Notes: a model not told the origin generated them from the letters alone. A stretch of DNA of 64,000 nucleotides from Promethearchaeota archaeon (GCA_048937405.1 JBHLNF010000002.1:256001-320000), one strand, 5' to 3'; shown: positions 42,820 to 64,000, counted from the stretch's first letter. A program made the numbers and translations.

Positions 42820-45039
42820 ATGAGTGTGAGTGATGTTTTTTTCACAATAATTCTTAATGTTATTCCAATATTGATTTTAATTATCCCGTATTTCTTCATT
42901 CGAAAAAAATTTCTTGGAAAGTTATATTTGAGAATCTATCTGGGAATTTTAATTTTTTATGTTGTGTATTGGTTTCTCCCTATTATATTCCAAACAGATA
43001 TTTCTCCAGAAAATTTAGAGCATACGACAGATATTCAAGGTTTTGGTTTTTTGGCAGCACACTTTGGATCACTTGTTTCACTTTTCGCTTTCTATCCATT
43101 AGTTACCTTACCCTATATTTTTTTTGTAACACCTTTTATTTCTGTATTATATGTATGGAATCGATTAAGAAAAGAAGATGGTTCAACAAAATCAAACTTG
43201 ATCCATCTAACTTACCAATTTACAGAGAGTCCTGTTAAACAAATTCGCAGGAGCATTTTAAAAAGCGACTGGACAAGAGAAAAAGAAATCCTTAAACTAT
43301 TAATTGTACTTTTACCCATATCTCTTTATCTTCTGCAAGTTATTCTCTCTGTTTCAAACTTAGAGACTGATCCTGTAATTACAGGAAAAACTGCTTTAGG
43401 ATGGTTTTTAGAGATTTTATTTGTATATTTGGCAATATTTATCTTTAGTATTGAATTACTCTTTAGTTCCCAAATAGCATTAAAGGGAAGATATATCGGT
43501 GAAGACATAAGAACCCAGACATATAAAAGTTTATATACAGTTGGAGCCCCAATTTCAATATTATCTTTATTACTATTTATCGCACAATATGGTTCTTCTA
43601 TTCTTATCATTTTATACTTTTTTGCATATTTTATAATGGCTTCGGTAATTTTTATCCTATTTCTTAAGATCTTTGAACCAATCTCTATATTGATTTTTAT
43701 AAAACTAATTGATTGGTGGAAAAATAGGAAACAGAAAGTTAAAAACGTAAATTATACAAACTTTTACTATGGAATAATTATTGCTTTTATAGCCATTATA
43801 TTGTTTTTTCTTCTAAATTTAATAGCATTTCAGCCATTATTTTCAATTGGTTTTCCTGATAGTAGTAACATAATCGATTCTGCACAATTTATACCATCAG
43901 TGAATCCTACTTTATCTTCTGCAATTTCTTTTGATCTTATGATAGTTTTTAATTTCATTATTTTAGAACTATTCCCCATAATCATTATGGCAGGACTTTT
44001 AGCGTATATTCTGAAATATATGAAAAGCACTTTCTTAGGACTTATAATTTATTTTATGGTTATAATATCATTTTCAGCTCTCCTAAGTCTTCTTGGAATA
44101 CCTTCATTAATTAATTTTACTCCAGAGGAATATTGGATCACAGGGCAAACCAGCTATACTACCATTCTTAATTTTAATTTTTATACTCTTCGCTCTGCAG
44201 CATTAGATGCTAACTTAAAAGGAGTATTAGGAGCTTTAGCACTTCCATATCTGTATACCAGATATGTATTTAATATCATAATTTGGAGCTTAATGATATT
44301 TTATAGTAGAAAGCTATTTAAAACCAAAAATATTCCTCTTGATGATAAAAACATAGAAAAAGTTGTATTTACGACTCTTACCGATTATCTCTCCTTTGAT
44401 GAATATGATCAAGGAAGTTCAGAAATCCTAATTTCAAGAAAAAAAGATTTCTATGGAAAAGAACTCGAACTAGAACGAGAAGAAGTAAAAGAACTATTGA
44501 ATAATCTGAACGAGGACAAATTTTTAGATGTTCTTAGGCCTGAAGATGAAAATGAGAGAAAAAGATTCTTTTTCACTTTAAAATATCTCTTTCAAAAGAA
44601 TTTAATCGATATATGGGAACCAGAATTCAAGTATACGTTTGAAAAAGTTGAAAAACAAGGACTTTATATTATATATGGGGACGGGAGAGGTGTTTTTAAT
44701 TATGCTTTTAAGAGTGAAGAAGCTCAAGATCCCGGATTGGTATCTGGAATGTTCTCTGCAATCACAGCATTTATTAAAGAAATGACTAAATCGACAGAAA
44801 CTTTAAAAAAAATTGACCACGGAGATATTACAATACTTCTTGAATATGGAGAAAGAATATTTGGAGCATTATTTATAAAAGGTATTCAAAGCTCAGAAAT
44901 ACGAGCTCCTCTGAAAGAATTTATCCAGAAATTTGAAGCAAAATACAAAAATATATTGAAAGATTGGACAGGAGCTCTCCAACATTTTGAAAGTGAAGAA
45001 GATAATAGACTTATAGAAGAGATTTTTAAAGAAGTCTAA
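42820..45039 (+). CDS. Polytopic membrane protein with C-terminal longin-like domain
   Basis: About 10-12 TMs, then GLYIIYGDG...DPGLVSGMFSAITAFIKEM...LKEFIQKFEAKY. Confidence 0.75.
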   Translation: MSVSDVFFTIILNVIPILILIIPYFFIRKKFLGKLYLRIYLGILIFYVVYWFLPIIFQTDISPENLEHTTDIQGFGFLAAHFGSLVSLFAFYPLVTLPYIFFVTPFISVLYVWNRLRKEDGSTKSNLIHLTYQFTESPVKQIRRSILKSDWTREKEILKLLIVLLPISLYLLQVILSVSNLETDPVITGKTALGWFLEILFVYLAIFIFSIELLFSSQIALKGRYIGEDIRTQTYKSLYTVGAPISILSLLLFIAQYGSSILIILYFFAYFIMASVIFILFLKIFEPISILIFIKLIDWWKNRKQKVKNVNYTNFYYGIIIAFIAIILFFLLNLIAFQPLFSIGFPDSSNIIDSAQFIPSVNPTLSSAISFDLMIVFNFIILELFPIIIMAGLLAYILKYMKSTFLGLIIYFMVIISFSALLSLLGIPSLINFTPEEYWITGQTSYTTILNFNFYTLRSAALDANLKGVLGALALPYLYTRYVFNIIIWSLMIFYSRKLFKTKNIPLDDKNIEKVVFTTLTDYLSFDEYDQGSSEILISRKKDFYGKELELEREEVKELLNNLNEDKFLDVLRPEDENERKRFFFTLKYLFQKNLIDIWEPEFKYTFEKVEKQGLYIIYGDGRGVFNYAFKSEEAQDPGLVSGMFSAITAFIKEMTKSTETLKKIDHGDITILLEYGERIFGALFIKGIQSSEIRAPLKEFIQKFEAKYKNILKDWTGALQHFESEEDNRLIEEIFKEV

Positions 45040-46807: not shown

Positions 46808-47881
46808 TTACTTAAGATTTTTCCTTTTTGCCTTAATTACTGCCTTTCCCATTTCCCTCACTCTATCGAATGGTGCTTCTCCATCTTCTCTCAATCGCAT
46901 TTTTATTGCTTCTTCAGGACAAGCTGTAGCGCATAGACCACATCCAAGACATTTCTCTCTGGATACAACAGCGATATTATCCAATTCTATAGCTCCAACA
47001 GGACAACGTTCAACACAAGTTCCACAACTAACACAGAGTTCTTCATCAATAATTGATTCAAACATGGCATTCAAAAACTCATGTCTATCTAATCCTTTTT
47101 CAGTAATTCCTTTCATTGTAAGACAACAACAAGGGCAACAATTACAGATATTTGATAGGTGTTTGGAATTAGCTCCCGCATGTATGCAACCTGCTTCGTC
47201 TGTTTCTTTAATGATTCTTATTGCTTCATCAGCGGAGATTTTCCTTCCAATACCATTTTCAATATAATATTCAGCAGCTACACCAAAACTAAGACAAGAT
47301 TCAATAGGACGATCACATCCTATACCATTCAATTTCGCCTCCTTTCGACATATGCAATCTGCTACAGAAATCACTCGTGCGTTTCTAATACTTTCCTTTA
47401 ATTTATGATAAGGATAAAGAGTAGTATTTGGTTCAATCATTTCTTCAATAGGAACTACTTTAAATCCTGGAACACCGCTAATTCCCATTTCTTCTTGATA
47501 TGCTGTATCATAATATTCCTTATAATATTTAGCAAGCTCTTTATCTATTTTATTAACAGAATATTCGTATATACCTATCATAAAAGGCGCTGCGTTGTAC
47601 AAAGTATTATTATTTCTTCGAATTTTAAAAATTAAACCCTTTTTCGCCATCGAATCTAACTTATTTTCTAAATTAATAACTTCCATTCCAGTTCTTTTAG
47701 CAATTTCACTAACTTCTTCCGGAATGCGAGTCAACATTATTGTTAATTTCGCTTCTTCTTCAGTAAAGAGCCTTTTTAAAATTTTAATTTCAACTCCAGA
47801 TGGAGTTTCGGGGTAACCTAAAGGAAATTGATTTAAGAATTCTCTTAACTTTAAATACGCTTCATCAGACATTCTGATCAA
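46808..47881 (-). CDS. 4Fe-4S dicluster protein with N-terminal HTH-like region
   Basis: CICR, ICNCCPCCC and two CxxCxxCxxxCP motifs. Confidence 0.9.
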   Translation of the reverse strand: MIRMSDEAYLKLREFLNQFPLGYPETPSGVEIKILKRLFTEEEAKLTIMLTRIPEEVSEIAKRTGMEVINLENKLDSMAKKGLIFKIRRNNNTLYNAAPFMIGIYEYSVNKIDKELAKYYKEYYDTAYQEEMGISGVPGFKVVPIEEMIEPNTTLYPYHKLKESIRNARVISVADCICRKEAKLNGIGCDRPIESCLSFGVAAEYYIENGIGRKISADEAIRIIKETDEAGCIHAGANSKHLSNICNCCPCCCLTMKGITEKGLDRHEFLNAMFESIIDEELCVSCGTCVERCPVGAIELDNIAVVSREKCLGCGLCATACPEEAIKMRLREDGEAPFDRVREMGKAVIKAKRKNLK

Positions 47882-48169: not shown

Positions 48170-51100
48170 TTATCTTAAGATTTCCTCATAAAGTTTCAGG
48201 ACGAAACCTTCAAAATCATCTTTTGTAAATTTGACATTCAGCATATGCCATAATAACCGAGGAATATCATCATCATCTTCATAAATAGGAATAATTTTCA
48301 TTAATCCTTTTTTAACCATTTGATAAGCTGACTGCCATTCTCCTTTTACAGCTTCAGATTTCATAGAATTCTTAGAACAAAATAAAATGAATGTGTTGGT
48401 CTTTTTCAGAGCCTCCTCCATATATTCAACAATATTTTGTTTGCTATCCGCTTTCCAGAATAAGACTTCTCCTATTTCAGGATATAATTCTAAACGGCTA
48501 AAAACTTTTGGGATTTGAAAGTAATCAGAATCTATTGTAGCATAACTTAAAAAAATATTATATTTCGCAATTTTTTCCTTTTCTGGTATAGGCGTGACTC
48601 GTTTTAACTTAAGGGATTTAGAACTTGAGAAATAATCACCATAAATTTCTTTCTTATTGATCATATCCTCAATTACAGTTTCGATTAATTCTTCATTTTG
48701 AATTCCAGTTCTCTCACTGATATCTGTCAGTTGTAAAAGAGTATATTCCCCACCTAATGCTAAAATTGTCTGCTTAATTTTAGAAATAGTTTCTGCTTCT
48801 GATTTTCTATACAAAATTATCTTTTCTTCAATTATGTTTACAATTTTTGATAAATTATACACCTGAGCTGCTTTTTGAATTGCAATTAATGCCTTAATAG
48901 ATTTATCAAATTTGCTTTCCTTGATCAGGTCCTCAATTAATTTGAGACTTTTCTTTAGATTTTTTAAATTTTTAACTTCATTTTCTCCAAATTTAAAGAC
49001 CAACTTCTCTTCTTGTTCTGTTTTTGGAACAAACAATTTTTTCTTCCATACTAAAACACCCGTTACGCTTAAAACAGCAATAATACTGATGATAATAATT
49101 ATTATGATTTCGATTGGAACTTGAGTCCCACCTCCAATTGAAAGATTATTATCAGAAATTATATTACCTATGCTCTTTCCTTCCTGTTTAATTGCTCCCT
49201 TATGATTATCTCTCAAATCATTATAGGTTACATTATTATAACTAGAATTCTCTAAATAAATTCCAAATTCGCTATTAAAGTTTATTGTATTATTGCTGAT
49301 TTTATTATAATCACTTAGCCGTAAATGAATCCCATATCTCTTATTATGATTTATAGTCTCATCATTGTATTTAATGGAGATATTTTTACAATTTGATAAG
49401 AGAATCCCATTATAACTATTATTATTTACAGTACTATGCGAAATTGTAATGTTTTCACATGAATCTAAAAAGATACCACTTCCAAAATTCTGGGAACAAT
49501 TATTAGAGAATAATCGTCCATTATTTGCCAATTTTAATTTAAGTCCTGCCATATTTTCAGAACTACCTGAACTATAAAATATACAATCTCTAATTACAAA
49601 ATAGGAACTAGTATTACTAATTTCTAAGCCGCTAGAAGAATTATGACCATCAATTATTATATTTTCAATCACATAAGGATCAGCTGAAGTCCCAGAACCA
49701 GTACATAATCCTAAATTAAATGCTTCAGTCCAGTTATAAGTTCCCGTCCCTAAATCGTCAATTATAAAAGGTGGAAGAAGCCATATTCCTACTCGTTTTA
49801 TGACTCGAAGTACTTGAGTTTGAATATGACCCGCAGTATCATTCGCATAAAATGTAATAATAATTAACCCATTTCCAAACAAATTCCATTGTTCTTGCAT
49901 AATATTCCCATTCCAATCAAATTTGTCAGACGTTACCGCACTATTTTGTAATGTAAACCATGTGTGTTCTAAATTGGGATCAGTAATACTCACATTAATA
50001 GAGGGAGGAGTAGTTGCAAATTTTTCATAGTCCTCTGGTGAATTAATCGTAATAACTGGCTTTGTATCATCTCCATCACTATAAATTGGTAAATAATCAA
50101 TAACCCCATTCTTGCTATAAGGAGTATCTCCTATCCCATCATCGTTCAAATCGGAACCACTATAATCACTCCAGGAATTCCCTATTATAGAATTATTCCA
50201 ATCATTATTACCATTATCAATTGCGTTTATATCATTATCCAAAGTATTATTATAAAAGAGATTATCTTGACAATCACTAGTAGATATATATATTCCATAT
50301 AAATTATTACTAGAGATGCTATTCCCTGATAACGTGTTATCGTCGCAATTATCCCCTAAATATATTCCGTGGTTTGTGTTGTTATTTGAAACATTTTCAG
50401 AGATGTTGTTCTTTTTGCAATTGTTGGTCAAAAATAATCCACTGTCTTTATTGCTACTTACATTATTGTTCGAGATGGTGTTATTACTACTAAATTCTAA
50501 ATATATTCCATAGTTTGTGTTATTATTTGCATTATTTCCTGAGATTTGATTATTATTGCAATTATTCCCTAAACTAATCCCAATTCCATTGTTGTTAGTA
50601 GTATTATTCGAGATTATATTATCAACATTACCATTACTTAAAGCTATTCCAGCTGTGTTGTTAAACGCAGTGTTTCCTGAGATATTGTTATTATAACAAT
50701 TCATCCCCAAAAGAATCCCGGCATAATTATTTATTGCGGTGTTTTCCAAGAACTTGTTATTACTACTAGAAGATAAAAATATCCCATAATTGTTTTTAAT
50801 AAAAAAGTTTCCCGATAAATTATTATCGCTAGAATCTTCCATATATACCGCATAGAATGTGTTGTTAATAAAGGTATTTCCCAATAAAATGATATTATAA
50901 CCATAAAATAATGATATTCCGAATCTATTATTTAAAAAATCATTATTTATCAAACTTCCATTGCCCGTACCATACAAACAGATTCCTGCATAAAGAAAAA
51001 AACTTCCTGCATTATGGACTTTACAATTTTTTATGGTAAAATAAACGTTTGAATTTTGAATTGTAATACATGCTTCGGATCCTCCTCCATCAATCTCTAA

Positions 51101-52897
51101 ACCATCAATGATATATGGATCAAAATAGGTTCCTGAACCCGAAACCCATGCTTTTAGTTTGGCTATTTGACTCCAATTATTTAAACCTGGACCCGAATCG
51201 TCAATATTAATTATTTCTCCTTCATAAACAGGACTTTCTACTAGTGGAAAATAATCTATACTACCTGCAGTTCCATTAATCGATATATATTCGGTATCAA
51301 CAATGTTATCAGTGTTATCGTCAGGGGATGTGTGATTATCCCAATAATTACCAACAATCGAATTATTCCAGTGATTATTGATGCCCGTGTCGCTCGCATG
51401 CCATTTATTGTTTTCTTTCAGAGCATTATGATAGATTAAATTATTCTGACTACTAATATCATCTATTTGAATTCCATTAATTAGATTACTTTTGATAAGA
51501 TTTCCCACAATGGTGTTATTACTACTAGAGGATAAATAAATTCCGTTTTCCGTATTGTTATTTACAATATTTCCGGATATGGTGTTATTATCACTAGAGG
51601 ATAAATAAATTCCATTTTCCGTATTGTTATTTACAATATTTCCTGATATGGTGTTATTATTTCCTGAGGAAATATATATCCCACTCTTAATATTATTAGT
51701 TGCATTATTTTCTGAAACAATATTGGAAGAGCTATCATACAATAATTTAATCCCGCATTCTGTGTTATTGTTTACGTTATTTTCTGAGATGTTATTATTC
51801 TTGTTATCGGTACTTAAACAAATTCCAACTTGATTGTTATTAACAGTGTTGTTTGAGATAGTGTTATCACTACTAAGTTGAATACTTATCCCACAATCTG
51901 AGTTGTTGTTTACACTGTTTCCAAAGATAACATTATTATTGGAACTGGTTACAATTATCCCGCATTCTGTGTTATTGTTTAAATCATTTCCTATGATGAA
52001 GCTATTATTGGTGTATATCCATATCCCTCTTCTATTCTTGTTTGCAATATTTCCTGTGACAGTAGTGTAATCGCAATATGCCCATAACTCTATCCCTTCA
52101 TAAAAATTTTCATATACGGTATTTTCTGAAACGGTATTATATTCACTCCAATATATATCAATACCATATTTGTTGTTATTTGCGGTGTTTTGTGAGAAAG
52201 TGTTATTATTACTAAAATTTATATTTATCCCACACATTGAGTTGTTGTTTGCTGTGTTTCCTGAAACGATGTTATTGTAACTAGAGGATAAAAATATCCC
52301 ATCGGACGTGTTGTTATTTACGATGTTTTTCGAGATTGTGTTACTTTGACTTGAGGATAAATATATTCCATCGTAAGTGTTGTTATTTACAGTGTTTTCC
52401 GAGATTGTATTATTATTACAACTATTAAACAACCAAATACCATTACCTCCATTATAAGAACAATTGTTTTTGAATAAGTTTCCGTTGTTGGTATTTCTCA
52501 ATTTGATTGCAGCATCCTCATGATCTATTCCTGCGTTGAAAATTGTAACATTTCTGATGACAAAGTAAACATTTTTAGAATTTTCTATGAAAATTCCATT
52601 TCCCGTAGGTGAACTGGATGCATCAATTGTGACATTTTCGATAACATAGGGATTGCTCCATGAACCATCACCATTACACCAATCGTTTAACGATGTAAGG
52701 GACCAGTTATCATTAATATGGATATACGTAAGTTCCCAAGAATTTGACTTCTTAAGGTTTTTTAAATTAATATCATCTGAATCTGTTGAATTTGACATAT
52801 TGTAAATATATAGATTATTTAACAACAATATTGTCATCAAAAAAATGAAGCTTGTTATTAACACATATTTCCTACCGATTTTTTTTTTCAATTTCAT
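48170..52897 (-). CDS. Single-pass receptor: NosD/parallel beta-helix repeats, Ig-like, TM, PCI-like wHTH, TIR
   Basis: N-terminal hydrophobic signal, many NNTISxN...NNxxGIxL repeats, TM IIIIIIISIIAVLSVTGVLVWKKK, and TIR NIFLSYA...FILFCSKNSMKSEAVKGEW...IIPIY. Confidence 0.9.
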   Translation of the reverse strand: MKLKKKIGRKYVLITSFIFLMTILLLNNLYIYNMSNSTDSDDINLKNLKKSNSWELTYIHINDNWSLTSLNDWCNGDGSWSNPYVIENVTIDASSSPTGNGIFIENSKNVYFVIRNVTIFNAGIDHEDAAIKLRNTNNGNLFKNNCSYNGGNGIWLFNSCNNNTISENTVNNNTYDGIYLSSSQSNTISKNIVNNNTSDGIFLSSSYNNIVSGNTANNNSMCGININFSNNNTFSQNTANNNKYGIDIYWSEYNTVSENTVYENFYEGIELWAYCDYTTVTGNIANKNRRGIWIYTNNSFIIGNDLNNNTECGIIVTSSNNNVIFGNSVNNNSDCGISIQLSSDNTISNNTVNNNQVGICLSTDNKNNNISENNVNNNTECGIKLLYDSSSNIVSENNATNNIKSGIYISSGNNNTISGNIVNNNTENGIYLSSSDNNTISGNIVNNNTENGIYLSSSSNNTIVGNLIKSNLINGIQIDDISSQNNLIYHNALKENNKWHASDTGINNHWNNSIVGNYWDNHTSPDDNTDNIVDTEYISINGTAGSIDYFPLVESPVYEGEIINIDDSGPGLNNWSQIAKLKAWVSGSGTYFDPYIIDGLEIDGGGSEACITIQNSNVYFTIKNCKVHNAGSFFLYAGICLYGTGNGSLINNDFLNNRFGISLFYGYNIILLGNTFINNTFYAVYMEDSSDNNLSGNFFIKNNYGIFLSSSSNNKFLENTAINNYAGILLGMNCYNNNISGNTAFNNTAGIALSNGNVDNIISNNTTNNNGIGISLGNNCNNNQISGNNANNNTNYGIYLEFSSNNTISNNNVSSNKDSGLFLTNNCKKNNISENVSNNNTNHGIYLGDNCDDNTLSGNSISSNNLYGIYISTSDCQDNLFYNNTLDNDINAIDNGNNDWNNSIIGNSWSDYSGSDLNDDGIGDTPYSKNGVIDYLPIYSDGDDTKPVITINSPEDYEKFATTPPSINVSITDPNLEHTWFTLQNSAVTSDKFDWNGNIMQEQWNLFGNGLIIITFYANDTAGHIQTQVLRVIKRVGIWLLPPFIIDDLGTGTYNWTEAFNLGLCTGSGTSADPYVIENIIIDGHNSSSGLEISNTSSYFVIRDCIFYSSGSSENMAGLKLKLANNGRLFSNNCSQNFGSGIFLDSCENITISHSTVNNNSYNGILLSNCKNISIKYNDETINHNKRYGIHLRLSDYNKISNNTINFNSEFGIYLENSSYNNVTYNDLRDNHKGAIKQEGKSIGNIISDNNLSIGGGTQVPIEIIIIIIISIIAVLSVTGVLVWKKKLFVPKTEQEEKLVFKFGENEVKNLKNLKKSLKLIEDLIKESKFDKSIKALIAIQKAAQVYNLSKIVNIIEEKIILYRKSEAETISKIKQTILALGGEYTLLQLTDISERTGIQNEELIETVIEDMINKKEIYGDYFSSSKSLKLKRVTPIPEKEKIAKYNIFLSYATIDSDYFQIPKVFSRLELYPEIGEVLFWKADSKQNIVEYMEEALKKTNTFILFCSKNSMKSEAVKGEWQSAYQMVKKGLMKIIPIYEDDDDIPRLLWHMLNVKFTKDDFEGFVLKLYEEILR
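51510..51659. repeat. 69-bp tandem repeat (23 aa), ~2.2 copies, inside the receptor gene
   Basis: Units start at 51510, 51579 and 51648; nearly identical DNA encoding NNTISGNIVNNNTENGIYLSSS[D/S]. Confidence 0.9.
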
Positions 52898-53206: not shown

Positions 53207-53842
53207 TCATAAAAAAAATGGTAGACAGGTGGTAAAACCTAATAAAATGCCTGCTGTTATCCCTCCAATTAGCAATGAAATTGCCATTTTTGGATTAAAA
53301 GGTATTTTATTCACCATATACCATACAGCAATTACTAAATCTGTGATTGCTATAAACGATCCAAATGCCACGACATAATAGATTGTTTGTTCATGTGGGT
53401 AAATGGATGCACTTATATCCATAATTCTATTCATTGTAAAAGGATCAATAATTCCACTAAAATTAATAAAGTTAAAAATCAGCCTATCGGGTAATGGTTC
53501 TAATACAAAAATTAAAACCATTGTAAGCCAATTGAATAAAATTCCAAATGCTAGTGCAATATAAATAGAACCTAAAATAAGCCGTGGTCTTCTTAATTTA
53601 TTAACTTCCTTCATATCTTTTAAACCCTTATCTCCATATTTCATTCTCTCTTGAAGATAAGTTCCGCGTAATTTTACCAATGTTAAAATTCCAATCGATA
53701 GCATTACGAAAAATAAAATATATTTCACAAACCCAAAAAAAATTACAGCAAATTCATTAAATGCAACACACCATGCCTCTAATCCATTAAAAAGGTCGGT
53801 AAAAGGATTATTAAGATATTTATCTAAAGGAAGGTATATCAT
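53207..53842 (-). CDS. Membrane protein (~4 TM)
   Basis: Hydrophobic segments; co-oriented 53 bp after the HerA-like gene. Confidence 0.75.
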   Translation of the reverse strand: MIYLPLDKYLNNPFTDLFNGLEAWCVAFNEFAVIFFGFVKYILFFVMLSIGILTLVKLRGTYLQERMKYGDKGLKDMKEVNKLRRPRLILGSIYIALAFGILFNWLTMVLIFVLEPLPDRLIFNFINFSGIIDPFTMNRIMDISASIYPHEQTIYYVVAFGSFIAITDLVIAVWYMVNKIPFNPKMAISLLIGGITAGILLGFTTCLPFFL

Positions 53843-53895
53843 CTATAATCTATTTTATCTCAAATATTTAAAGTCTACAAAGAAATTTCTTATAC

Positions 53896-55692
53896 CTATT
53901 TGCGTTTTTGTTGTTTTACATATAACTCATCCAGATAATTCTTAAGATTCTCATATGCCTCTTCAGGATCAACAGAAGATTCTGATATATCATCATTAAC
54001 TTCATATTCACTAGAATAATTGTCTAAATATTCGTCACCATTCAAAATCTCATTTGATTTGGCTTTATTTTTATTTATCTTGTTATTCTTCTCTCCATCT
54101 TTAATTTTTATTTTTTTTAAAAAACCAGTAAATTTTTCTATAAAATTTCTAAAATTGTGAGTTTGTTTTGTATTTTTTATTTCTACACTCTTATTTTTTA
54201 ACTGATCGAATTTTTTTAATACTCTTTCATTATTTTTATTAATTTCAGTAATCTTTAGCCATTCACGAGGAATATGAGGGACTTTTAGGAGAAATGGTCT
54301 CTCTATTGAATTCACACGAGCAATACATTGCCCCTTCTTTAAAATCGATAAATAATCTTCATGTTCTATATCCAAATTTAAAAGTTTACATAAAAATTCT
54401 TTATCCATATGAGTTTTAAAACATATTAAAACTCCACAATTTGCCAAAATCTCTTCGCTAATATCTGGGTGAGTTGCCAGTGATATCAAACATTCTCCGG
54501 TACCTCTCTGAAGTAAAGCAATATCTTCAAGATACGTGGTTAGCTTACTTTTTCGGGTAAGATCTTTTGGAGCAAAATATTGAGTATCTTCTACTATGGT
54601 TATATGCTTTATTCCTTGAAAATTATACGCTCCACGAGTAAGATTTCTGTCCCAGAGGTATTTTAAAAGCATATTCAAAAAGAAAAGAGCATCTTCCTTT
54701 TCTCCACCAAGACGGATAATTGAACTGAGATCTATCAAGATATTTCTGCTAAAAAGGGTATCAGTTTTTATTTTATGCTCAGTATCGAATAGCACTTTAA
54801 GAGGGCCTAACGAAAATCTTCGTATTCGATTGGTGATACTAATGATGGTCTGACTGAGCATAGGAATCTCCTTTTTTTTATTGATGGCATACCCATTGCA
54901 ATATTTATAAAATCCTTCCCAACTCTGAAATTGTTTCTTTTGGCACACTTTTGTTAAGATATCTACTAGAACCTTTTGCATCTGTGCGGAATATTCCTCT
55001 GTGGTATCGAGGAATTTACCACTCTTTAATATATCAAATATTCTTTCAGCATGGATTTCTGGAGGCGATGTTCCAGGATTAAAGATATTTATAGAAAAAT
55101 TCTCACCGGGACGAATAACTAACAAATCTTCAATCTTTCTCTGGAGAAAATGATATTCTCCTTTAAATTCTGCAAGCATAAATGGAATTTTATATCGTCG
55201 TATAAGATTGATTAAGAAATGTTGTAAAAAATTACTTTTACCTGTACCAGTCGCACCACAGATAAACATATGCTTCTCAAGGTCTTCGAGAGAAAGATAA
55301 AATGGTCGTTTAGTTCTCCCATTTTCTATGATGGTTCCTGCCTTAACTTTTCCCTTTCGAGACTGTAACAATGATGGTTTATCTAATTTTACAATGTCGC
55401 TTTCATAGTGAAATGAGGAACAAATAAACATTCCGGCAGAAAATAGCAGCGAAAAAAAGAATATATTGCTAAATATCCCTTTTATAGGAAACGTTGCAGA
55501 ATCAGGATTAATGGTAAGATAAGGGAGTGAACTAAGAGTGAAAATTAGAATTTCTGTTCCTAATAAACATATAAAGAACAATTTCGATAGTGTTCGTGAA
55601 CCTCCTCGCTTCCTAGTATAGTAAAAAATAACGCTATATACAATTAAAACAACAATGAGAATTATACTTATTGAATCTATGAGAGTAGACAT
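53896..55692 (-). CDS. Membrane-anchored HerA/FtsK/VirB4-like ATPase (DUF87)
   Basis: 3 N-terminal TMs, KHMFICGATGTGKS, EFKGEY, variant Walker B ITIVEDTQ, QRGTG, ATHP. Confidence 0.85.
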   Translation of the reverse strand: MSTLIDSISIILIVVLIVYSVIFYYTRKRGGSRTLSKLFFICLLGTEILIFTLSSLPYLTINPDSATFPIKGIFSNIFFFSLLFSAGMFICSSFHYESDIVKLDKPSLLQSRKGKVKAGTIIENGRTKRPFYLSLEDLEKHMFICGATGTGKSNFLQHFLINLIRRYKIPFMLAEFKGEYHFLQRKIEDLLVIRPGENFSINIFNPGTSPPEIHAERIFDILKSGKFLDTTEEYSAQMQKVLVDILTKVCQKKQFQSWEGFYKYCNGYAINKKKEIPMLSQTIISITNRIRRFSLGPLKVLFDTEHKIKTDTLFSRNILIDLSSIIRLGGEKEDALFFLNMLLKYLWDRNLTRGAYNFQGIKHITIVEDTQYFAPKDLTRKSKLTTYLEDIALLQRGTGECLISLATHPDISEEILANCGVLICFKTHMDKEFLCKLLNLDIEHEDYLSILKKGQCIARVNSIERPFLLKVPHIPREWLKITEINKNNERVLKKFDQLKNKSVEIKNTKQTHNFRNFIEKFTGFLKKIKIKDGEKNNKINKNKAKSNEILNGDEYLDNYSSEYEVNDDISESSVDPEEAYENLKNYLDELYVKQQKRK

Positions 55693-55811: not shown

Positions 55812-57055
55812 GGACTTTATATACGAAAAATGAATGCTAAGTTAAGGATTTAGTAAAATTATTAAATAAAAGATTATAGAAATTGAAGTGAATTAAGAAT
55901 TAACAATATAAAAATTTAAAAAAGAGGAAAAAAATGTTTTTGGAAGAAAAATGTAATAGGGATACGTGTGGAATTGCCTGTTTAACAAAATGTTATTATA
56001 TGGACTATTCAGAGCAACAGGCAAAAGAAGAATTTGAAAAATTAATAAGAGGTGAACTGTCTCCTGTAACATCGGAATGTATTACATGCTGTGCGTGCAC
56101 AATGTATTGCCCACATGGTGCAGATCCTTTTGATCTCATCAGCAGGAGAATGGAAGAAACAGGAACATTTATTGGGGATGAACGTGCAGTCAATCAAACG
56201 AAAATGGCTAATTTAATGCCATCATCTGTAAAAAAAGGGGATCCTGATAAGCCTATAATGAATCTTTGCACAGTTAATTTGATTGCAGGGTCAATTGAGG
56301 GACAATTATTTGAAGGATTAACCCTTCTTCAAGGAGGAGATTATTTCTGTCAAATTGGAGGATATCATGCCGGATTACCAAGTATGGTGAGAGAAAATGC
56401 CCAGAAATTCATTACTACCCTTACAAAAGTCGCTTCTGATGATAATTATGTAATTTGCTTCCATGACGATTGCTTTATGATGCTGGAACATTATGCAAAA
56501 GATTTTGGGATAGAAGTTCCGTTTAGATATATGCATATCATTGAATATCTTCGAGATTATGTGAAAAAGAATCCCGATAAAATTAAGAAACTCAACATGA
56601 AAGTGGCATACCAGCAACCATGCGCGTCTCGTATAGGATGGGATGCTTTCAGGAAAAAAGACAAAACACTTGATGAGTTATTCGATTTATTGGGTGTTGA
56701 AAGAGTAGCTCGAAAATATGATCGCGACGCAGCACTCTGTTGTACAGCAGTTATTTCTCCTAATGATAAATATTGGAAAATGAACATAGCCGATGCTAAA
56801 GAAGCAGGGGCAGAAGCGATGGTATTTCTCTGCCCCGTCTGTTGCTTATACCTAAGGAGCAAAGCTAAAGCAGAGGGGTTGGAACCTTATTTTCTAAGCA
56901 ATCTCGTAAGGGAAGCATTGGGTGAGAGGCTCCCCCAAGGGAAAGCCGGTAAAATTTATGAATAAAATAAAGCAAAAATACTATATTTTTTTTTAGTTGT
57001 CAAATCCAATTTATCTGTTTAGTACTAAAAATGTAGGACTTTAAATACGAAAAAT
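55812..57055. repeat. 20-bp direct repeat pair flanking the Fe-S gene
   Basis: ggactttaTatacgaaaaat (55812-55831) versus ggactttaAatacgaaaaat (57036-57055), 19/20 identical. Confidence 0.7.
55934..56965 (+). CDS. Fe-S oxidoreductase with CCG domains (HdrD/GlpC-like)
   Basis: CGIACLTKC, CITCCACTMYCP, YQQPC, LCC, CPVC. Confidence 0.85.
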   Translation: MFLEEKCNRDTCGIACLTKCYYMDYSEQQAKEEFEKLIRGELSPVTSECITCCACTMYCPHGADPFDLISRRMEETGTFIGDERAVNQTKMANLMPSSVKKGDPDKPIMNLCTVNLIAGSIEGQLFEGLTLLQGGDYFCQIGGYHAGLPSMVRENAQKFITTLTKVASDDNYVICFHDDCFMMLEHYAKDFGIEVPFRYMHIIEYLRDYVKKNPDKIKKLNMKVAYQQPCASRIGWDAFRKKDKTLDELFDLLGVERVARKYDRDAALCCTAVISPNDKYWKMNIADAKEAGAEAMVFLCPVCCLYLRSKAKAEGLEPYFLSNLVREALGERLPQGKAGKIYE

Positions 57056-57280
57056 ACAAGCTATAAGTACTGTATGATCACTATTTTTAGAAAAGAGAAC
57101 AAGAACCATAACACTTTCCCTCATTTACTTCTCTTTTCTTTTCTTCTCAAAAAATCTCTGAAAAATATAGATTTTAAGGCTTTTGACATAGAATAAATGG
57201 TCTATTGATTGTTTTATTCTCTCAATATAAATCTATTTTTACAAAAATTGACCAAAAAAAGAAAAAGAAGAAAGGGGAAA

Positions 57281-58417
57281 TTATAAAGCATTATAAAGAG
57301 CGTCAATAATTCTCTCACTTCGGGGATCTCCTGCGATGGTATTTGTCATTTTATTCATAACATAGGCAATACTTAACCTAGCATCAAGATCCATTCTGCA
57401 TACTGAACCTCCAGCTCCACCCCAATATAACACATTTTTATTTGGACCTTTAGGGCGTTCTTTTTGTTGCAACCCAAAACCCAAGCCGAAACGTACTGGT
57501 AATTGAACGACCAAATCTGTTCCATACGATTGTTCCTCTAGAGCCTTTTTAATAGTCTTTAATGAAAGTATCTGCACACCATCAAGTTCACCTCCACAGG
57601 CTATTGCTGCAGCTATTCTGGCAACAGAGCGAGCATTTCCATGACCATTTGCAGCTGGAATTTCGGCTCCACGCCAAGCGCGAGTCTTAACTTCTCCAGG
57701 AGGTATTGGAGAACTCATAACTGTTTTTATAACAACAGAATTTGGATCTAATTGTCCTAATTGGCTTAGATCTCTAGTGGGAGGAGGTATAAGTTCTCCG
57801 ACACGGGAATCATACTCTTCCGAAAGTCCGATGTGAAAGTCTGCATTGAGAGGTACAGCAACTTCTTCTCTAAAAAATGTTCCAAGGGTTTTTCCTGTTA
57901 TACGACGTACTATCTCACCTAATAAGTATCCAAAAGTTACCATATGATAACCGCTTTTGGTTCCAGGTTCCCACCATGGCTTTTGGGCAGCTAACAAGTT
58001 AACCGTTTTTTCCCAGTCATAAAGAGTCTTGATTCCAACGGGCTTATCGAAACCAGAAAGTCCCGATGTATGACTTAGTAGATACCGAACTGGTAATGTA
58101 TCTTTTCCTGCTTGGGCAAACTCAGGCCAATACTTAGCAACAGGAGCATCAAGATCTAGTTGACCTCGATCAACAAGCATGAGGGTGCATATTGCGGTCA
58201 TTATTTTTGTTGTTGAATAGACATTCACAATTGTATCCTTTTCCCATGGTTTTGTTTGGGCAACGTCAGAATGTCCCGCCCACATATCTATTATGAATTT
58301 GCCATTTAACGTTGCTGCAAATGAAGCTCCAACCTCTAAATCCTCTTCGAAATTTTGAGCAAAAGCGTCTTTCACCGCGTTAAATTGGTCATCACAAAAT
58401 CCATGAATTTCAACCAT
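57281..58417 (-). CDS. Serine hydrolase, beta-lactamase-related esterase family
   Basis: YSTTK (SxxK), LLSHTSGL, PWWEPG..GYH, WGGAGGS. Confidence 0.93.
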   Translation of the reverse strand: MVEIHGFCDDQFNAVKDAFAQNFEEDLEVGASFAATLNGKFIIDMWAGHSDVAQTKPWEKDTIVNVYSTTKIMTAICTLMLVDRGQLDLDAPVAKYWPEFAQAGKDTLPVRYLLSHTSGLSGFDKPVGIKTLYDWEKTVNLLAAQKPWWEPGTKSGYHMVTFGYLLGEIVRRITGKTLGTFFREEVAVPLNADFHIGLSEEYDSRVGELIPPPTRDLSQLGQLDPNSVVIKTVMSSPIPPGEVKTRAWRGAEIPAANGHGNARSVARIAAAIACGGELDGVQILSLKTIKKALEEQSYGTDLVVQLPVRFGLGFGLQQKERPKGPNKNVLYWGGAGGSVCRMDLDARLSIAYVMNKMTNTIAGDPRSERIIDALYNAL

Positions 58418-58559
58418 AATTTTTCACATTCAATTATTTAATTTAATTTGTAGGGGAGAATTTATTTTAAGTTTTCATTTTCTCCAAAATTTGGTGAAAA
58501 AATATCTAGTTTATTAATCCGAGGTTGATTAATATACATAAAACATTAATGTTAGAATT

Positions 58560-60101
58560 ATGAAAACTATAGTAAATACTTCTTTAGGAGAAATTGAAGG
58601 TATTCAAGAATCAGGCCATCAATCGTTTTTGGGGATTCGTTATGCTAAACCACCCGTGAATGAATTACGTTTTTCTACTCCTCTCCCAATTGAAGCATGG
58701 GACGGAACTTATGATGCGACTCATTTTGGTCATAATGCTCCTCAATTTGATAGGGGTATAGGATATTTTAAAGATAATTCTGAAGATTGTTTATTTTTGA
58801 ATGTGTATACTCCTAAGGCTGATGACGCAAAAAGGCCTGTAATGGTATGGATCCATGGTGGGGGTTTTGTATTTGGAACAGGGGCAACCGTAGGGTATGG
58901 AAAAAAAATAGTTCCAAGAGGTAATATTGTTTTGGTCACAATCAATTATCGATTAGGAGTTTTTGGCTTTTTTAATTGGCCTGATTTAACAAAAAATAAC
59001 GGATTGCTAGATCAAATTTGTGCTCTTGAATGGGTTAGAGATAATATTCGATATTTCGGAGGGGATAATACTAATGTAACGATTTTTGGGCAATCTTCTG
59101 GTGGAAGGGCAGTAACTACATTACTAACAATGCCTTCAGCAAAGGGATTATTCCACAAAGCAATCCCCCAAAGTGGTACCGCACATCCTTATGCGTATGA
59201 TACTAAGCCGAGTAAGGAAGCTTCAAGAGTCGTGTTTGATGTATTAGGAATTAAAACGGGGGATATCGATTCATTAAGAGAAGTAGAATGGTCCGAATTG
59301 AAAAAGGCTCAGGCTGAAATTTTTAGTAAACTAGATCCGAAAGAACATCGAATTATGTTTCCTTTTAGACCCGTACTTGATAAAGATACTATTCCAGTTG
59401 TACCCTTGGATGCCATTCGGAATGGATATGCAAAAAATATTCCGTTACTTATCGGAAACACATTGGACGAAAGGAAAATTTATAATAGAGGATTAATCCG
59501 GGCAAACCAAGTTGCATTAATACATAGACGACATGAAAACACAGATGATGCGAGGCTTTTAAAATTTGCTAATAGATATATGAAATACTACGGTAAAACA
59601 GAAGATGATGCAAAAGACTTAATTGAAACGTACAAAAAATCTAGAAAGGGTAAGTTACCAATAGAGTCCTATGAACTTGAATATGTTATCAATACTGATG
59701 AGGCATATCGAATACCAGTCATCCGAATTGCTGAAGCACAAAGCCAAAATCAACAAAATACTTATTGCTACCTATTTGGGTTCAAATCACCCGTCTATGA
59801 GGATTTGCTAGGTGCATGTCATATAATTGATTTACCATTTATTTTCGGCACTTATGATAATTCAGATCCGAATACAGAAGTAATGGTTGGAACCAATATA
59901 GAGGTACTTGAACCTTTTTCAAACATAATCATGGATACATGGATAGCATTTGCTAAAAATGGAGACCCGAATCACCGAGGGCTTCCCAAGTGGCCACAAT
60001 ACGATCTGAATAACCGTGCTACAATGATCCTCAAACCAAATCCAGAGGTTGTCAATGCCCCAATGGACGAGGTACGCGCTGCATGGGAAAAAGTTTTCTA
60101 A
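58560..60101 (+). CDS. Type B carboxylesterase
   Basis: SEDCLFLNVY, WIHGGGF, NYRLG, FGQSSG, GACH. Confidence 0.95.
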   Translation: MKTIVNTSLGEIEGIQESGHQSFLGIRYAKPPVNELRFSTPLPIEAWDGTYDATHFGHNAPQFDRGIGYFKDNSEDCLFLNVYTPKADDAKRPVMVWIHGGGFVFGTGATVGYGKKIVPRGNIVLVTINYRLGVFGFFNWPDLTKNNGLLDQICALEWVRDNIRYFGGDNTNVTIFGQSSGGRAVTTLLTMPSAKGLFHKAIPQSGTAHPYAYDTKPSKEASRVVFDVLGIKTGDIDSLREVEWSELKKAQAEIFSKLDPKEHRIMFPFRPVLDKDTIPVVPLDAIRNGYAKNIPLLIGNTLDERKIYNRGLIRANQVALIHRRHENTDDARLLKFANRYMKYYGKTEDDAKDLIETYKKSRKGKLPIESYELEYVINTDEAYRIPVIRIAEAQSQNQQNTYCYLFGFKSPVYEDLLGACHIIDLPFIFGTYDNSDPNTEVMVGTNIEVLEPFSNIIMDTWIAFAKNGDPNHRGLPKWPQYDLNNRATMILKPNPEVVNAPMDEVRAAWEKVF

Positions 60102-60143
60102 ATTAAATTTTTTTTTATAACACTTTTACTTGAGATTAAAATT

Positions 60144-61604
60144 ATGGGGGAAAAAAAGATAAAAAAAAACCGATTGGAGGAATTAATTGGAACAGTAAGT
60201 AAAGATCCTCACTTACTTTCTTCCCAGTTGGATTATCCATCTATTACTGAACCATTAGCTAAGTACATTTCAGAAACCCAATTTAGTACAATCCCAGACG
60301 ATATACTCGAACTTGCTAAACGCCATATCCTAGATACTTTGGCTTCAGTGGTGGTAAGTTCACAGTTAAAACCTTCTCGTCTAGCACGTCAATTTGCAAT
60401 CTTTAATGGTGGAAAAGCTGATACCGCACATTTACTTACTACAAATCAAACCACCACCTTATTGGATGCTATTTTTGCAAACGCAATAACGGCTCATGCA
60501 ACAGAAATAAATGATTTTTGCCCATCCGCATTCGTGCAACCTGGTCCTCCAATTATATCCACTGCATTATCTATTGGGGAAACTATAGGAGCATCTGGAG
60601 AAGAAATACTCAAAGCAGTTGTTATTGGTTATGAAATTGCGTGTAAACTACCAAAAGCCTTGGGAACGATGAACCTACGTACAGCGGGATTATCATCTCA
60701 TGGTGTCGGACCTACCTTTGGTTCAGCCGCAACAGCAGCATCACTTTTAAAATTACCAAAAAGGGAAATTAGATATGTTTTAGCTTATTGTGTTCAACAA
60801 GCATCAGGTTCTTTTAATTGGATTCGTGATGAAGAACATATCGAAAAAGCTTTTCTATTTGCTGGAATGCCTGCAAGAAATGGAGCTTCTGCCGCTTTAA
60901 TGGTTCATAAGGGATTTACAGGTGTAAATGATCCTTTTAAAGGAAGACCCAACTGGTTGCTCAGTTCTATTTTCATTGGAATTGATTCTGATCTTGATTT
61001 AAATAGATTAATTCATGATTTAGGAGTAGAATACGAGATGCCCTTGGTAGGGTATAAACGATATCCTGTAGGTGGTCCAGTCCAAGCCAGTGTTGAGGGA
61101 TTAATGGAGTTAATAAAAAAGGTAGACCGAACATCAATTATTAAAATTGAAATAAAGATGCCAGGAAATGTAAGCATTTTTTCTGATGCGGAAATGCCCG
61201 CATTAAATTTACGATATTTGGCAGCAGTTATTTTAGAGGATGGTGATCTATCCTTTCACATGGCACAATCTCACGAACGTATGTCCACAGAATCAATTAG
61301 AAAAAAAATGGAGTATGTTACCTTAATCCACGATCCCACTCAAGAAAAAGAACCTCGAGTAGAATCAGCACTAGTAAAAGTGACCCAAAAAAATGGTGAA
61401 AATCATGAGATTTTCATCGAACATGTCCTTGGATTCCCTGAACGCCCTATGAATCATCAAGATGTTGAAGATAAAGTGAAAAGCTTAATTACTCCGATAT
61501 TGGAATACTCAAAAGCAAATGACTTAATTGAGACAATATGGAATCTGGAATCCTTACCAAACATCCAGACCATTATTCCGTTATTAATTCCACCAAATAC
61601 TTAA
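60144..61604 (+). CDS. MmgE/PrpD family protein
   Basis: KRHILDT, AHATEINDF, GYEI, GFTG, YKRYP, GFPERPM. Confidence 0.9.
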   Translation: MGEKKIKKNRLEELIGTVSKDPHLLSSQLDYPSITEPLAKYISETQFSTIPDDILELAKRHILDTLASVVVSSQLKPSRLARQFAIFNGGKADTAHLLTTNQTTTLLDAIFANAITAHATEINDFCPSAFVQPGPPIISTALSIGETIGASGEEILKAVVIGYEIACKLPKALGTMNLRTAGLSSHGVGPTFGSAATAASLLKLPKREIRYVLAYCVQQASGSFNWIRDEEHIEKAFLFAGMPARNGASAALMVHKGFTGVNDPFKGRPNWLLSSIFIGIDSDLDLNRLIHDLGVEYEMPLVGYKRYPVGGPVQASVEGLMELIKKVDRTSIIKIEIKMPGNVSIFSDAEMPALNLRYLAAVILEDGDLSFHMAQSHERMSTESIRKKMEYVTLIHDPTQEKEPRVESALVKVTQKNGENHEIFIEHVLGFPERPMNHQDVEDKVKSLITPILEYSKANDLIETIWNLESLPNIQTIIPLLIPPNT

Positions 61605-61822
61605 TCATTCTGATTTTTTGCTAGTATTTTTAAAATTTTACCCAAAAACTCAATTGGAAAAAAATGGTAAATTTAATGTCTAATTTCAATGAAAATTCTT
61701 TTAAAAAATTTTAGGAACATTTTAGGAATATATGGATTTACTAATTAAGATGATTATTGTAAATGATAAACTAAAAACAAAATAAAAAGAAGATATAATA
61801 AAATTGGTTGATATTTAATGAG

Positions 61823-63856
61823 TTATTTATCAAGGTTATATGCAACTTCAAATCCTTCATGTACAGCCTCCAGCATTGTCCTCGGTTCTTTACTATCCCC
61901 TATATTAAACAGTTTGAATGAGGGATTCGTGGATTTTATTTTTTCATAAAGGTCGGTATTACTTTTCACGCCGGTTGCGAGGATAAATGTATCAACATTA
62001 TCAATTGTATGGATTTCTTGACCCTGATCGGGAATATTAATCCTGTATTCAATTGAATTTCCCTCGAATTTTATAATTTCTACGTTCAAAATCTCTTTTA
62101 TCTGTAATTTTTTTGAAATACCGATTAAATATCCTCTTGTTGTTCGTCCCACATTCATAGCCAGTTTCGGCAAAACATCTATTATGGTAACATTTCGATT
62201 TCCTTTTAGCCATCGTTTGATAATTTCCTCTTGGGGTATTAATTCATAAAAACTAAGGAAATGTGCAATATCGGAATTAATCGCTCCCAATTCAGCAGCC
62301 CAAATTGCTGTCTCTAAACCGGTTGCTCCCCCGCCAACAACAACGACATTTTTACCAACAACATGATTCCCAGCTAAGGCTTCCTCTGCAGAACACATAT
62401 CACTCCCATTTGATCCGTCAATACCAGGAATATCAGGGATGGAAATCTTTACACCAGTTGCAAATATCACTGCATCTGGATTAAAATCGTTGATAAATTC
62501 TGGTGTTGCTTCGGTAGCCAATCGTAATTTTATATGACGATGATGGATTTGTGCTTCATAATAGCGTATCATTTCTGAGATGTTTCTTCTGCTATGGGGA
62601 ACAGCAGCAGTTTTCATCTGTCCTCCAATAGAATCACTTTTTTCTACTATGGTAACGTCATGACCCAGTATAGCAGCAATACGTGCCGCTTCAAGTCCAC
62701 CCGGACCGCTCCCAACGATTAACACTTTTTGAGGATTGTCAGTTTTCTTACTTAGGTCAATATCTCCCTCTTTTGCGGTAATATAATTTCTCATACACAC
62801 GACAGACTTACCACTGAAGATAGTGTCAAAGCATCCTTGATTACATGCCACACATTTCATAATATCCCAAAGTCGGTTTTCTCTTGCTTTATTGGGTAAT
62901 TCAGGATCAGCGATTAACGCTCTTCCCATACTAATAGCATCTACTCTTTCATCTCTTAATATTTGCTCGGCAATTAAGGGATCATTTATCCGATTCGCCA
63001 TAAAAACAGGGACATTCACCTCCTTTTTAATGTTCTCACCGAGATATACATAGGCCGCTTGTGGCACCATCATAGGGATTTGAGGAATCCGTGTCTCGTG
63101 CCACCCTCCCGTTACATTCAAAAATTCTATTCCTGCTTCTTCATAGTGTTTTGAAAATATAGGGCTTTGCGTCCAATCATTGGATCCTGGAACGAAATCA
63201 TCACCAGCAACTCGCATTCCAACTCTCATTTTACCACCAACTCTCTTTTTCATCAGTTTTATTAGCTCGAGTGGATATCTTAATCGATTTTCTAAAGATC
63301 CACCATACTCATCGGTTCTTTTGTTGATCTTTGGGCTTAAAAATTGAGTAATTAAATACCCTGCACTTCCAAGTAATTCCACTCCATCAAAACCAGCTTC
63401 CAATAAACGTTCTGCAGCTAATGCATGATCTTCCTGTATTTGTTTTATTTCATCGATTGTTAATTCCTTAGGTATCAGGCCTGTAAGGTTTGATCTCACT
63501 GCAGAAGCAGATACCGCATTTTTACCAGAAAAATATGCTCCTGAATGCATTAATTGTGCCATAACTTTAACACCATGTTTATGCATTTTTTCGGCAAAAG
63601 CGGCATATCCAGGAATTAGTTTATCATCTCCGATATATGGTGTACCTCCACTATTAGGACTAATTCCTATTCCACCAATTATAATTAATCCTGCTCCACC
63701 TTTTGCTCGTTTTTCGTAAAAATTGCTAAAAATATCAGTTACTTCTCCTTTAGGTGTATACCCCAAACCCAGAGCGGGCATAACAATTCGATTTTTTATT
63801 TCTAAATCCTGAATTTTAAAAGGTTCAAATAATTTAATGAGTTTCATTTTTTTCAC
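61823..63856 (-). CDS. fadH: 2,4-dienoyl-CoA reductase (OYE-family flavin/Fe-S oxidoreductase)
   Basis: KNRIVMP, GFDGVELLGSAGYL, NKRTDEYGGS, GWHETRIP, CVACNQGC, GSGPGG, GGGATG. Confidence 0.85.
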   Translation of the reverse strand: MKKMKLIKLFEPFKIQDLEIKNRIVMPALGLGYTPKGEVTDIFSNFYEKRAKGGAGLIIIGGIGISPNSGGTPYIGDDKLIPGYAAFAEKMHKHGVKVMAQLMHSGAYFSGKNAVSASAVRSNLTGLIPKELTIDEIKQIQEDHALAAERLLEAGFDGVELLGSAGYLITQFLSPKINKRTDEYGGSLENRLRYPLELIKLMKKRVGGKMRVGMRVAGDDFVPGSNDWTQSPIFSKHYEEAGIEFLNVTGGWHETRIPQIPMMVPQAAYVYLGENIKKEVNVPVFMANRINDPLIAEQILRDERVDAISMGRALIADPELPNKARENRLWDIMKCVACNQGCFDTIFSGKSVVCMRNYITAKEGDIDLSKKTDNPQKVLIVGSGPGGLEAARIAAILGHDVTIVEKSDSIGGQMKTAAVPHSRRNISEMIRYYEAQIHHRHIKLRLATEATPEFINDFNPDAVIFATGVKISIPDIPGIDGSNGSDMCSAEEALAGNHVVGKNVVVVGGGATGLETAIWAAELGAINSDIAHFLSFYELIPQEEIIKRWLKGNRNVTIIDVLPKLAMNVGRTTRGYLIGISKKLQIKEILNVEIIKFEGNSIEYRINIPDQGQEIHTIDNVDTFILATGVKSNTDLYEKIKSTNPSFKLFNIGDSKEPRTMLEAVHEGFEVAYNLDK

Positions 63857-64000
63857 ATTTACTTTTATATTTATTAGATATTATTAGTTTTGAACTATTA
63901 ATGAATTTTAACTCTTTTCTTTTGATAAAATTGATATAATGGATTTTAAATTAGGATCAATTCATAGAAACCTTTGTATTTAAACATAGTATCATTTATT

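Follow-up and report, generated by a model that had tools for sequence, protein, structure and literature searches.

We examined one gene in a 64,000-nucleotide stretch of a Promethearchaeota archaeon genome (GCA_048937405.1, JBHLNF010000002.1:256001-320000). This stretch is termed the window and positions are counted from its first letter. The gene product has a large beta-helix ectodomain, one predicted transmembrane helix and a tail in which a PCI-like winged helix is followed by a C-terminal TIR domain. Coordinates are listed in Table 1. We interpret the gene as a type-I cell-surface sensor, with its ectodomain outside and its PCI-like/TIR tail signalling inside. Our confidence in this reading is middling. 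The architecture, a set of swappable ligand-binding heads among relatives, an invariant glutamate at the catalytic position and a SLOG gene linked to paralogues are best fitted by a surface sensor that would cleave NAD+ or make an NAD-derived signal. Within its family, the gene is distinguished by a triple beta-helix head joined to a complete PCI-like/TIR tail.

The initial annotation, made from the sequence alone, had placed a TIR domain retaining the glutamate of VKGEW at the C-terminus. Pfam TIR_2 (PF13676) matched residues 1448-1563 with 44.3 bits in the whole protein and 48.6 bits in the tail alone, against a cut-off of 28. The ThsB_TIR model scored 19.6-21.3 bits, with a cut-off of 21.2. 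Single-sequence AF2 modelling of the tail was poor (pLDDT 52.7). Instead, we used a model based on an alignment of the cytoplasmic tails of 22 homologues (A1), which reached a mean pLDDT of 78.4 and ~85-90 over the TIR domain. The model contains three long helices (tail residues 11-100), a winged helix of strand-helix-helix-strand-strand order (103-149) and an alpha/beta domain (162-291). Foldseek matched the model to the TIR domain of Hydra TRR-2 (4w8g, TM-score 0.78), and also to SPARTA TIR-APAZ, MyD88 and SARM1. VIA, an aligner independent of Foldseek, superposed it on the Cat1, TRR-2 and MyD88 TIR domains (Z 14.3, root-mean-square deviation (rmsd) 1.8-3.5 over 116-128 residues). The modelled C-terminal domain is confirmed as a TIR fold.

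Fold-level matches do not separate animal TIR domains from other types. Sequence profiles were also compared with the PDB. The A1 tail profile gave no match at E ≤ 0.01 and a broader profile, built from 61 diverse TIR domains of the family (A4), was needed. This matched the bacterial TIR-TPR protein 9m0n (E 3e-7), Cat1, a bacterial SEFIR protein, plant AT1G72930 and ThsB. No animal Toll-like receptor (TLR) or MyD88 chain was found at E ≤ 1 in the A4 search. In the A4 alignments, Glu1520 pairs with the glutamate of AT1G72930 (CLDEL), of Cat1 (CWDEL) and of the 9m0n TIR domain. The residue is invariant in the 22 tails of A1, and is kept in at least 90% of the 61 TIR domains of A4.

The initial annotation had likened the protein to TLRs and had suspected convergence. 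Animal Toll-like and Toll-related receptors (Hydra TRR-2, TLR2, TLR10) have the same type-I layout, consisting of a signal, a solenoid ectodomain, one transmembrane helix and a cytoplasmic C-terminal TIR domain, and that of TRR-2 matches in fold. However, the Asgard head is a right-handed beta-helix, whereas TLRs carry leucine-rich repeats (LRRs). No LRR was found in the ectodomain by Pfam scanning, which returned only Beta_helix and NosD. In addition, ~160 residues of helices and PCI-like winged helix lie between the transmembrane helix and the TIR domain of the Asgard protein. The TIR domain itself keeps the catalytic-type glutamate, and its profile matches prokaryotic and plant domains. Since head type and insert differ, and TIR sequence type appears to differ as well, the resemblance to TLRs is most likely convergent.

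A PCI-like winged helix had also been proposed ahead of the TIR domain. This claim is supported for the family. The gene's own copy scored 16.4 bits (E 0.011) with PF01399, under the cut-off of 22. Of 40 aligned homologues, 32 matched PF01399 at E ≤ 1 (best 2e-5); the next commonest family matched five. Three soluble TIR paralogues in the genome pass the cut-off at the homologous position (27.3, 25.7 and 22.9 bits). When the family profile was compared with the PDB, the six best sequences were CSN3 PCI domains without exception (E 0.004), and the alignment spans the winged helix and the final helices ahead of it. CSN3 was also the first non-TIR match in Foldseek (E 1e-3), with a TM-score of 0.2. 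VIA superposed the winged helix on that of DDRGK1, which is itself PCI-like (Z 10, rmsd 1.4, 60 residues). Because several lines converge, we call the predicted module PCI-like at family level. PCI domains build multi-subunit complexes in eukaryotes. The PCI proteins of the COP9 signalosome (such as CSN3), the proteasome lid and eIF3, and also DDRGK1, resemble the Asgard module, as modelled, in having helices and then a winged helix. By comparison, the Asgard module is TIR-fused and predicted to be membrane-tethered. PCI domains are protein-protein assembly modules, and PCI-like winged helices have been reported both from membrane kinases of archaea and from Asgard proteins linked to ESCRT (PMC10936438). 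The proposed PCI-TIR fusion is supported, and our literature search found no earlier report of a PCI-like winged helix joined to a TIR domain.

The order of the other domains is likewise as first proposed. One ORF (open reading frame) encodes a signal peptide or anchor, the beta-helix modules, a single transmembrane helix and the C-terminal TIR domain. The helix, expected at ~49050-49115, was predicted at 49046-49114 and is followed by KKK, which predicts a cytoplasmic C-terminus. A type-I single-pass layout is predicted on the basis of these sequence signals. There are 56 NxS/T sequons in the ectodomain and one in the tail; cysteines number 22 and one, respectively. As shuffled ectodomains yield 45 ± 5.6 sequons, the excess is mostly due to composition (asparagine-richness) and is no independent evidence of topology. 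The public gene call (P0002, 1542 amino acids) begins 33 codons downstream and lacks the signal or anchor (52799-52897). Homologues of the receptor start with similar N-termini of signal or anchor type, which supports the longer form (P0001).

Each of the three beta-helix modules opens with a cap, as the initial annotation had noted. The motif G[SD]G[TS]xx[DN]PY[IV]I occurs at residues 76, 587 and 1067, and recurs in a consensus drawn from 42 homologous ectodomains. Nine stretches each were matched by Pfam Beta_helix (E 2e-107) and by NosD (E 1e-104), and 18 by the NCBIfam parallel-beta-helix repeat TIGR03804. The NosD subfamily model TIGR04247 scored 219 bits, under its cut-off of 300. Hence, the ectodomain shares the NosD/CASH repeat type only and the protein is not NosD. 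Two arrays of 69-nucleotide coil repeats lie within the first module. Their repeats, up to 93% identical, reflect recent duplication of coils. An Ig-like domain, also claimed at the outset, remains a lead. Searches of Pfam, PDB and the Atlas gave weak matches only, namely Glucodextran_B (E 0.16) and Atlas feature matches to Big_13/Big_7 clusters of bacterial Ig-like domains (0.81).

Next to the conserved tail, heads vary. A word-indexed search returned 33 long proteins with the same tail, all carrying TIR_2. Domains in their ectodomains include Beta_helix/NosD, SBP_bac_5, Peripla_BP_6 and Kre9_KNH; one soluble form has TPR. The named members of this set are all from metagenome-assembled genomes (MAGs) of Promethearchaeota, Lokiarchaeota or Hermodarchaeota. 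An exhaustive search gave 846 representatives at E ≤ 1e-3, of which 120 reached E ≤ 1e-30. We inspected 166 TIR relatives, and 75 have an ectodomain longer than 150 residues, a transmembrane helix and then a TIR domain (34 of these 75 also have a winged-helix linker). In 42 further ectodomains, NosD/Beta_helix was present in 33. SBBP, WD40 and FG-GAP propellers, PKD, fn3, Ig, SBP_bac_5 and Peripla_BP_6 were also found. The initial annotation had suggested that a survey of paralogues would reveal ectodomains shuffled on one PCI-TIR tail; beta-helix, SBP_bac_5, Peripla_BP_6, PKD and propeller heads on this tail bear this out. Tails of relatives are 50-64% identical to that of the gene. Their ectodomains are 29-50% identical or unrelated, the best-conserved part being module 3 (45-50%). 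In a tree of 22 tails, presence of SBP_bac_5 changes at least six times, and near-identical tails (P0008 and P0009) bear different heads. The gene lies in a clade (SH-aLRT 97) that holds all head types. Solute-binding-protein heads are ligand binders and so argue for sensing.

The family is restricted to Asgard archaea. A pattern scan from A1 over 185,579 species genomes found 55 loci, each of which bears an Asgard MAG or "uncultured archaeon" label. Across all searches, every named relative came from a Promethearchaeota, Lokiarchaeota, Hermod-, Hod-, Thor- or Odinarchaeota MAG, in line with the Asgard origin first suggested. Within the phylum, searches recovered the tail family from 22 of 40 genomes of the source's own family. 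Two other families yielded it in 2 of 3 and 1 of 10 genomes, and the remaining ~150 phylum genomes searched gave no match. Matches number 1-11 per genome, and at one locus several family genes stand in tandem. From these sequences, the family appears as a lineage-specific expansion with tandem arrays. The source genome encodes five members of receptor type, alongside about ten soluble TIR paralogues. No paper describing a PCI-like/TIR-tailed Asgard receptor family was found in our literature search.

Separately, two tandem genes 12-16 kb before the window start (C28:239689-244247, L078) encode SBBP beta-propeller proteins with TSP3 repeats. The tail of each matches the helical/PCI-like profile (E 1e-11) and has no TIR domain. 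A transmembrane helix was predicted in one of the two only (residue 478). By sequence, the pair look related to the receptor tail, minus the TIR domain. P0159 (593 amino acids) is similar, with beta-helix, transmembrane helix and PCI-like regions.

Candidate partners lie beside paralogues of the gene. LSDAT_prok (SLOG) has a single match in the genome (C13:191105-191554), within an 857-residue RelA_SpoT, TPR and LSDAT_prok protein (C13:190514-193087). This is encoded two genes downstream of a paralogous receptor (C13:195642-200558). The locus (C13:190514-200558, L076) consists of the beta-helix, transmembrane and TIR receptor, a 526-residue protein with a weak DUF4407 match, and the RelA_SpoT-TPR-LSDAT_prok gene. 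Homologues of the last lie within 6 kb of a family member at 11 of the 55 loci, once each in 11 of ~25 genomes, and usually directly downstream. The 526-residue gene recurs at nine of the 55. A second candidate is a soluble LRR and PCI protein (PCI 31.9 bits, above cut-off), encoded at C13:245157-247340 (L077:1158-3341, plus strand) and L015:13443-15596 (minus strand), where it adjoins a receptor with SBP_bac_5, transmembrane and TIR regions. It is likewise paired with an SBP-type receptor in at least three further MAGs (L021, L022 and L023). The LRR-PCI protein is a candidate cytoplasmic partner, which would act by PCI-PCI contacts.

We can outline how such a sensor may work. A surface ligand or contact, possibly a polysaccharide or the envelope of a cell or virus, would alter clustering of the receptor. 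The helical and PCI-like part would then draw tails together, and the assembled TIR domains would cleave NAD+ or produce an NAD-derived signal nucleotide. A separate reader would take up the signal, and our candidate for this role is the one RelA/SpoT-TPR-SLOG protein of the genome, encoded beside the paralogous receptor. More broadly, we tentatively propose an Asgard outside-in TIR pathway, in which many receptors with interchangeable heads on a common PCI-like/TIR tail, tail assembly driven by the PCI-like winged helix and an NAD-derived nucleotide would converge on a single RelA/SpoT-TPR-SLOG-longin reader. We consider this scheme less likely than not.

Known systems offer partial parallels. 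Like Thoeris, in which the TIR protein ThsB makes a signal for a SLOG or Macro effector, the family combines a TIR_2/ThsB-like domain bearing the catalytic glutamate with a SLOG protein beside paralogues. However, ThsB is small and soluble, whereas the Asgard TIR domain ends a large membrane receptor. No effector adjoins the gene, and the Asgard SLOG protein carries RelA/SpoT-like and TPR regions rather than SIR2. The TIR domains of SARM1, SPARTA TIR-APAZ, Cat1, plant TIR-NLRs and bacterial 9m0n also have the glutamate and are joined to a sensing or assembly module. Activity of these proteins depends on oligomerisation. Those proteins are cytosolic and respond to intracellular cues, whereas the sensing part of the Asgard protein would be extracellular.

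Several observations weigh against a signalling receptor. The tryptophan of the WxxxE motif is replaced by alanine at position -4 (S-E-A-V-K-G-E-W) in the Asgard protein, and alanine is also the residue of its family at this site. This tryptophan is common, not universal, among TIR domains and is present in the aligned 9m0n, Cat1 and AT1G72930 sequences. Hence, NADase competence is not assured. The gene's tail is the longest terminal branch of its clade (0.81, compared with 0.2-0.4). The locus does not form a defence island, and no effector gene with a SLOG or Macro sensor lies within ±6 kb of the receptor gene. The SLOG reader is tied to paralogues only. None of the gene's neighbours, including the HerA-like ATPase and 211-residue genes described below, recurs in the 55 related loci, and the gene is thus a stand-alone unit. 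Finally, eight other beta-helix proteins of the genome are plain surface proteins, each with a C-terminal transmembrane anchor and a tail of 2-16 residues. The ectodomain is therefore drawn from a general pool of surface proteins.

Many of these points suit the main rival explanation, that the gene encodes a structural or adhesive surface protein. The beta-helix would function in the envelope or in attachment, and the PCI-like/TIR tail would be a non-enzymatic scaffold, as TIR domains are in animal TLR signalling, with no nucleotide signal. NosD/CASH modules with recently duplicated coils, the eight simply anchored paralogous beta-helix proteins, the lack of defence, effector or local partner context and the missing tryptophan are all consistent with this. 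So are the role of PCI domains as protein-protein assembly modules (PMC10936438) and the soluble LRR-PCI genes that adjoin two family members. However, a pure scaffold would not be expected to keep the catalytic-position glutamate invariant across the family. Solute-binding domains, found typically in sensors rather than structural proteins, replace or lengthen the beta-helix in many relatives, and paralogues are linked to a nucleotide reader of SLOG type. We consider a structural or adhesive role unlikely.

Alternatively, the gene may provide abortive-infection defence. Virus attachment or damage to the ectodomain would trigger NAD+ depletion by the TIR domain, and cell arrest or death, with neither messenger nor reader. 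The catalytic-type glutamate is kept, and structural matches include the NAD+-depleting TIR domains of SPARTA, SARM1 and Cat1. Distribution of the family is patchy, variable in copy number and expanded in tandem, as in immune genes. In ten genomes of the same genus, searches turned up no ortholog whose tail exceeds 61% identity, and the locus is non-syntenic in the three inspected. The bacterial defence system Rst_2TM_1TM_TIR also places a TIR domain on a single-pass prokaryotic membrane protein. Consistent with a defence role, Leao et al. 2024 include a 1TM-TIR system, written "Rst2TM TIR-NLR" and "2TM 1TM TIR", among the defence systems that Asgard genomes carry more often, and do not treat the PCI-like/TIR receptor family (PMC11291487). 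However, that system consists of a small 1TM-TIR protein and a 2TM partner, whereas the Asgard gene lacks a 2TM partner gene and encodes a 1250-residue ectodomain and a PCI-like insert. Scanning with PADLOC returned nothing beyond a weak ThsB1 match (E 0.003), and no Rst_2TM_1TM_TIR match. In addition, the neighbours are of housekeeping type, the solute-binding heads of relatives suit sensing of small molecules over viruses, and the SLOG linkage points to a signal and not to plain depletion. We regard abortive infection as quite improbable, and less likely than a structural role. A membrane-anchored extracellular enzyme (polysaccharide lyase, hydrolase or epimerase), regulated or localised by the tail, is very improbable: right-handed beta-helices include many glycan-active enzymes and NCBIfam AlgG (mannuronan epimerase) matched weakly (E 4e-4, 19 bits, cut-off 700), but no catalytic family scored meaningfully, and relatives keep the tail but exchange the head for binding domains that are not enzymes.

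Table 1. Features of the receptor gene, as window positions
Feature	Residues	Position	Strand	Basis or remark
Whole gene (P0001)	1575 in total	48170-52897	minus	Single ORF: ectodomain, transmembrane helix, helical region, PCI-like winged helix, TIR domain
N-terminal signal peptide or signal anchor	1-33	52799-52897	minus	Lys/Arg-rich n-region, then hydrophobic core
Beta-helix module 1	~54-552	51242-52738	minus	Cap at residue 76; end motif GNYW...DYFPL
Second 69-nucleotide coil-repeat array		52241-52412	minus	76-85% identical
69-nucleotide tandem repeats (23-residue beta-helix coil)		51470-51715	minus	Up to 93% identical
Beta-helix module 2	~562-938	50084-51214	minus	Cap at residue 587; end motif GNSWSDY...DYLPI
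Probable Ig-like/beta-sandwich spacer	~946-1035	49793-50062	minus	Lead only: Glucodextran_B and Atlas matches
Membrane-proximal beta-helix module 3	~1039-1257	49127-49783	minus	Cap at residue 1067
Single transmembrane helix (predicted)	1262-1284	49046-49114	minus	Hydrophobic stretch, then KKK
Cytoplasmic helical region	~1295-1384	48746-49015	minus	Three long helices in model; align with last helices before CSN3 winged helix
PCI-like winged helix	~1385-1434	48596-48745	minus	Model, profile, Foldseek, VIA, paralogue scores
TIR domain	1445-1575	48173-48565	minus	Pfam TIR_2, fold model, structural and profile matches
Glu1520 codon (VKGEW), catalytic-Glu position of enzymatic TIR domains	1520	48338-48340	minus	Alignment

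Around the gene lie a histone-deacetylase-family gene, a 739-residue protein, small proteins with no family match, a TrmB-like/4Fe-4S protein, a HerA/FtsK-like ATPase with a 211-residue partner, a beta-lactamase-fold protein and a carboxylesterase. The ATPase (53896-55692; 598 residues) is upstream on the same minus strand. It matches DUF87, and CedD/CedB and PADLOC HerA weakly. The 211-residue protein encoded downstream of it (53207-53842) has no family match. We considered this pair as partners of the receptor and rejected them, since the pair recurs without a TIR gene (C7:348038-350716; 44% and 35% identity) and is absent from the 55 loci. Together, the two genes (53207-55692) look like a two-gene module unlinked to TIR genes. 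In three genomes of the same genus, only the HerA-like gene is common and no TIR gene is near it. The receptor gene has no positional ortholog in these three genus-mates; the genus is divergent. Searching sequencing runs with the gene gave no RNA run. DNA matches were to sediment metagenomes of two studies, one perhaps the source.

Further features of the window were noted in passing. The TrmB-like protein (46808-47881, minus strand) has its winged helix fused to two 4Fe-4S ferredoxin motifs. About ten full-length paralogues (25-38% identity) occur in the genome and, judged from sequence, are possibly an expanded set of redox-sensing regulators. The 739-residue protein (42820-45039, plus strand) has a weak TFIIE_alpha-like stretch only (E 0.004). 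Its last ~115 residues recur in the C-terminal part of three other large proteins of the genome (C18:32308, C13:284002 and C17:270908). The window is AT-rich (GC 0.26-0.38). Positions 16001-22000 and 56001-64000 have a GC content of 0.34-0.38, compared with 0.26-0.31 elsewhere, and the second block holds the beta-lactamase-fold and carboxylesterase genes. These blocks could be a compositional island or differently constrained genes.

TIR domains are common to bacterial, plant and animal immunity. To our knowledge, only animals place a TIR domain behind a large extracellular sensor. An Asgard receptor family of the kind proposed would place an origin of transmembrane TIR signalling outside animals. 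If true, the pathway would be the first in prokaryotes to tie extracellular sensing to TIR signalling, partly with eukaryote-typical modules (PCI and longin). Asgard archaea are the archaeal lineage closest to eukaryotes. The family would offer a testable system for surface sensing of partners, substrates and viruses, and would bear on whether eukaryote-type modules such as PCI served signalling before eukaryogenesis.

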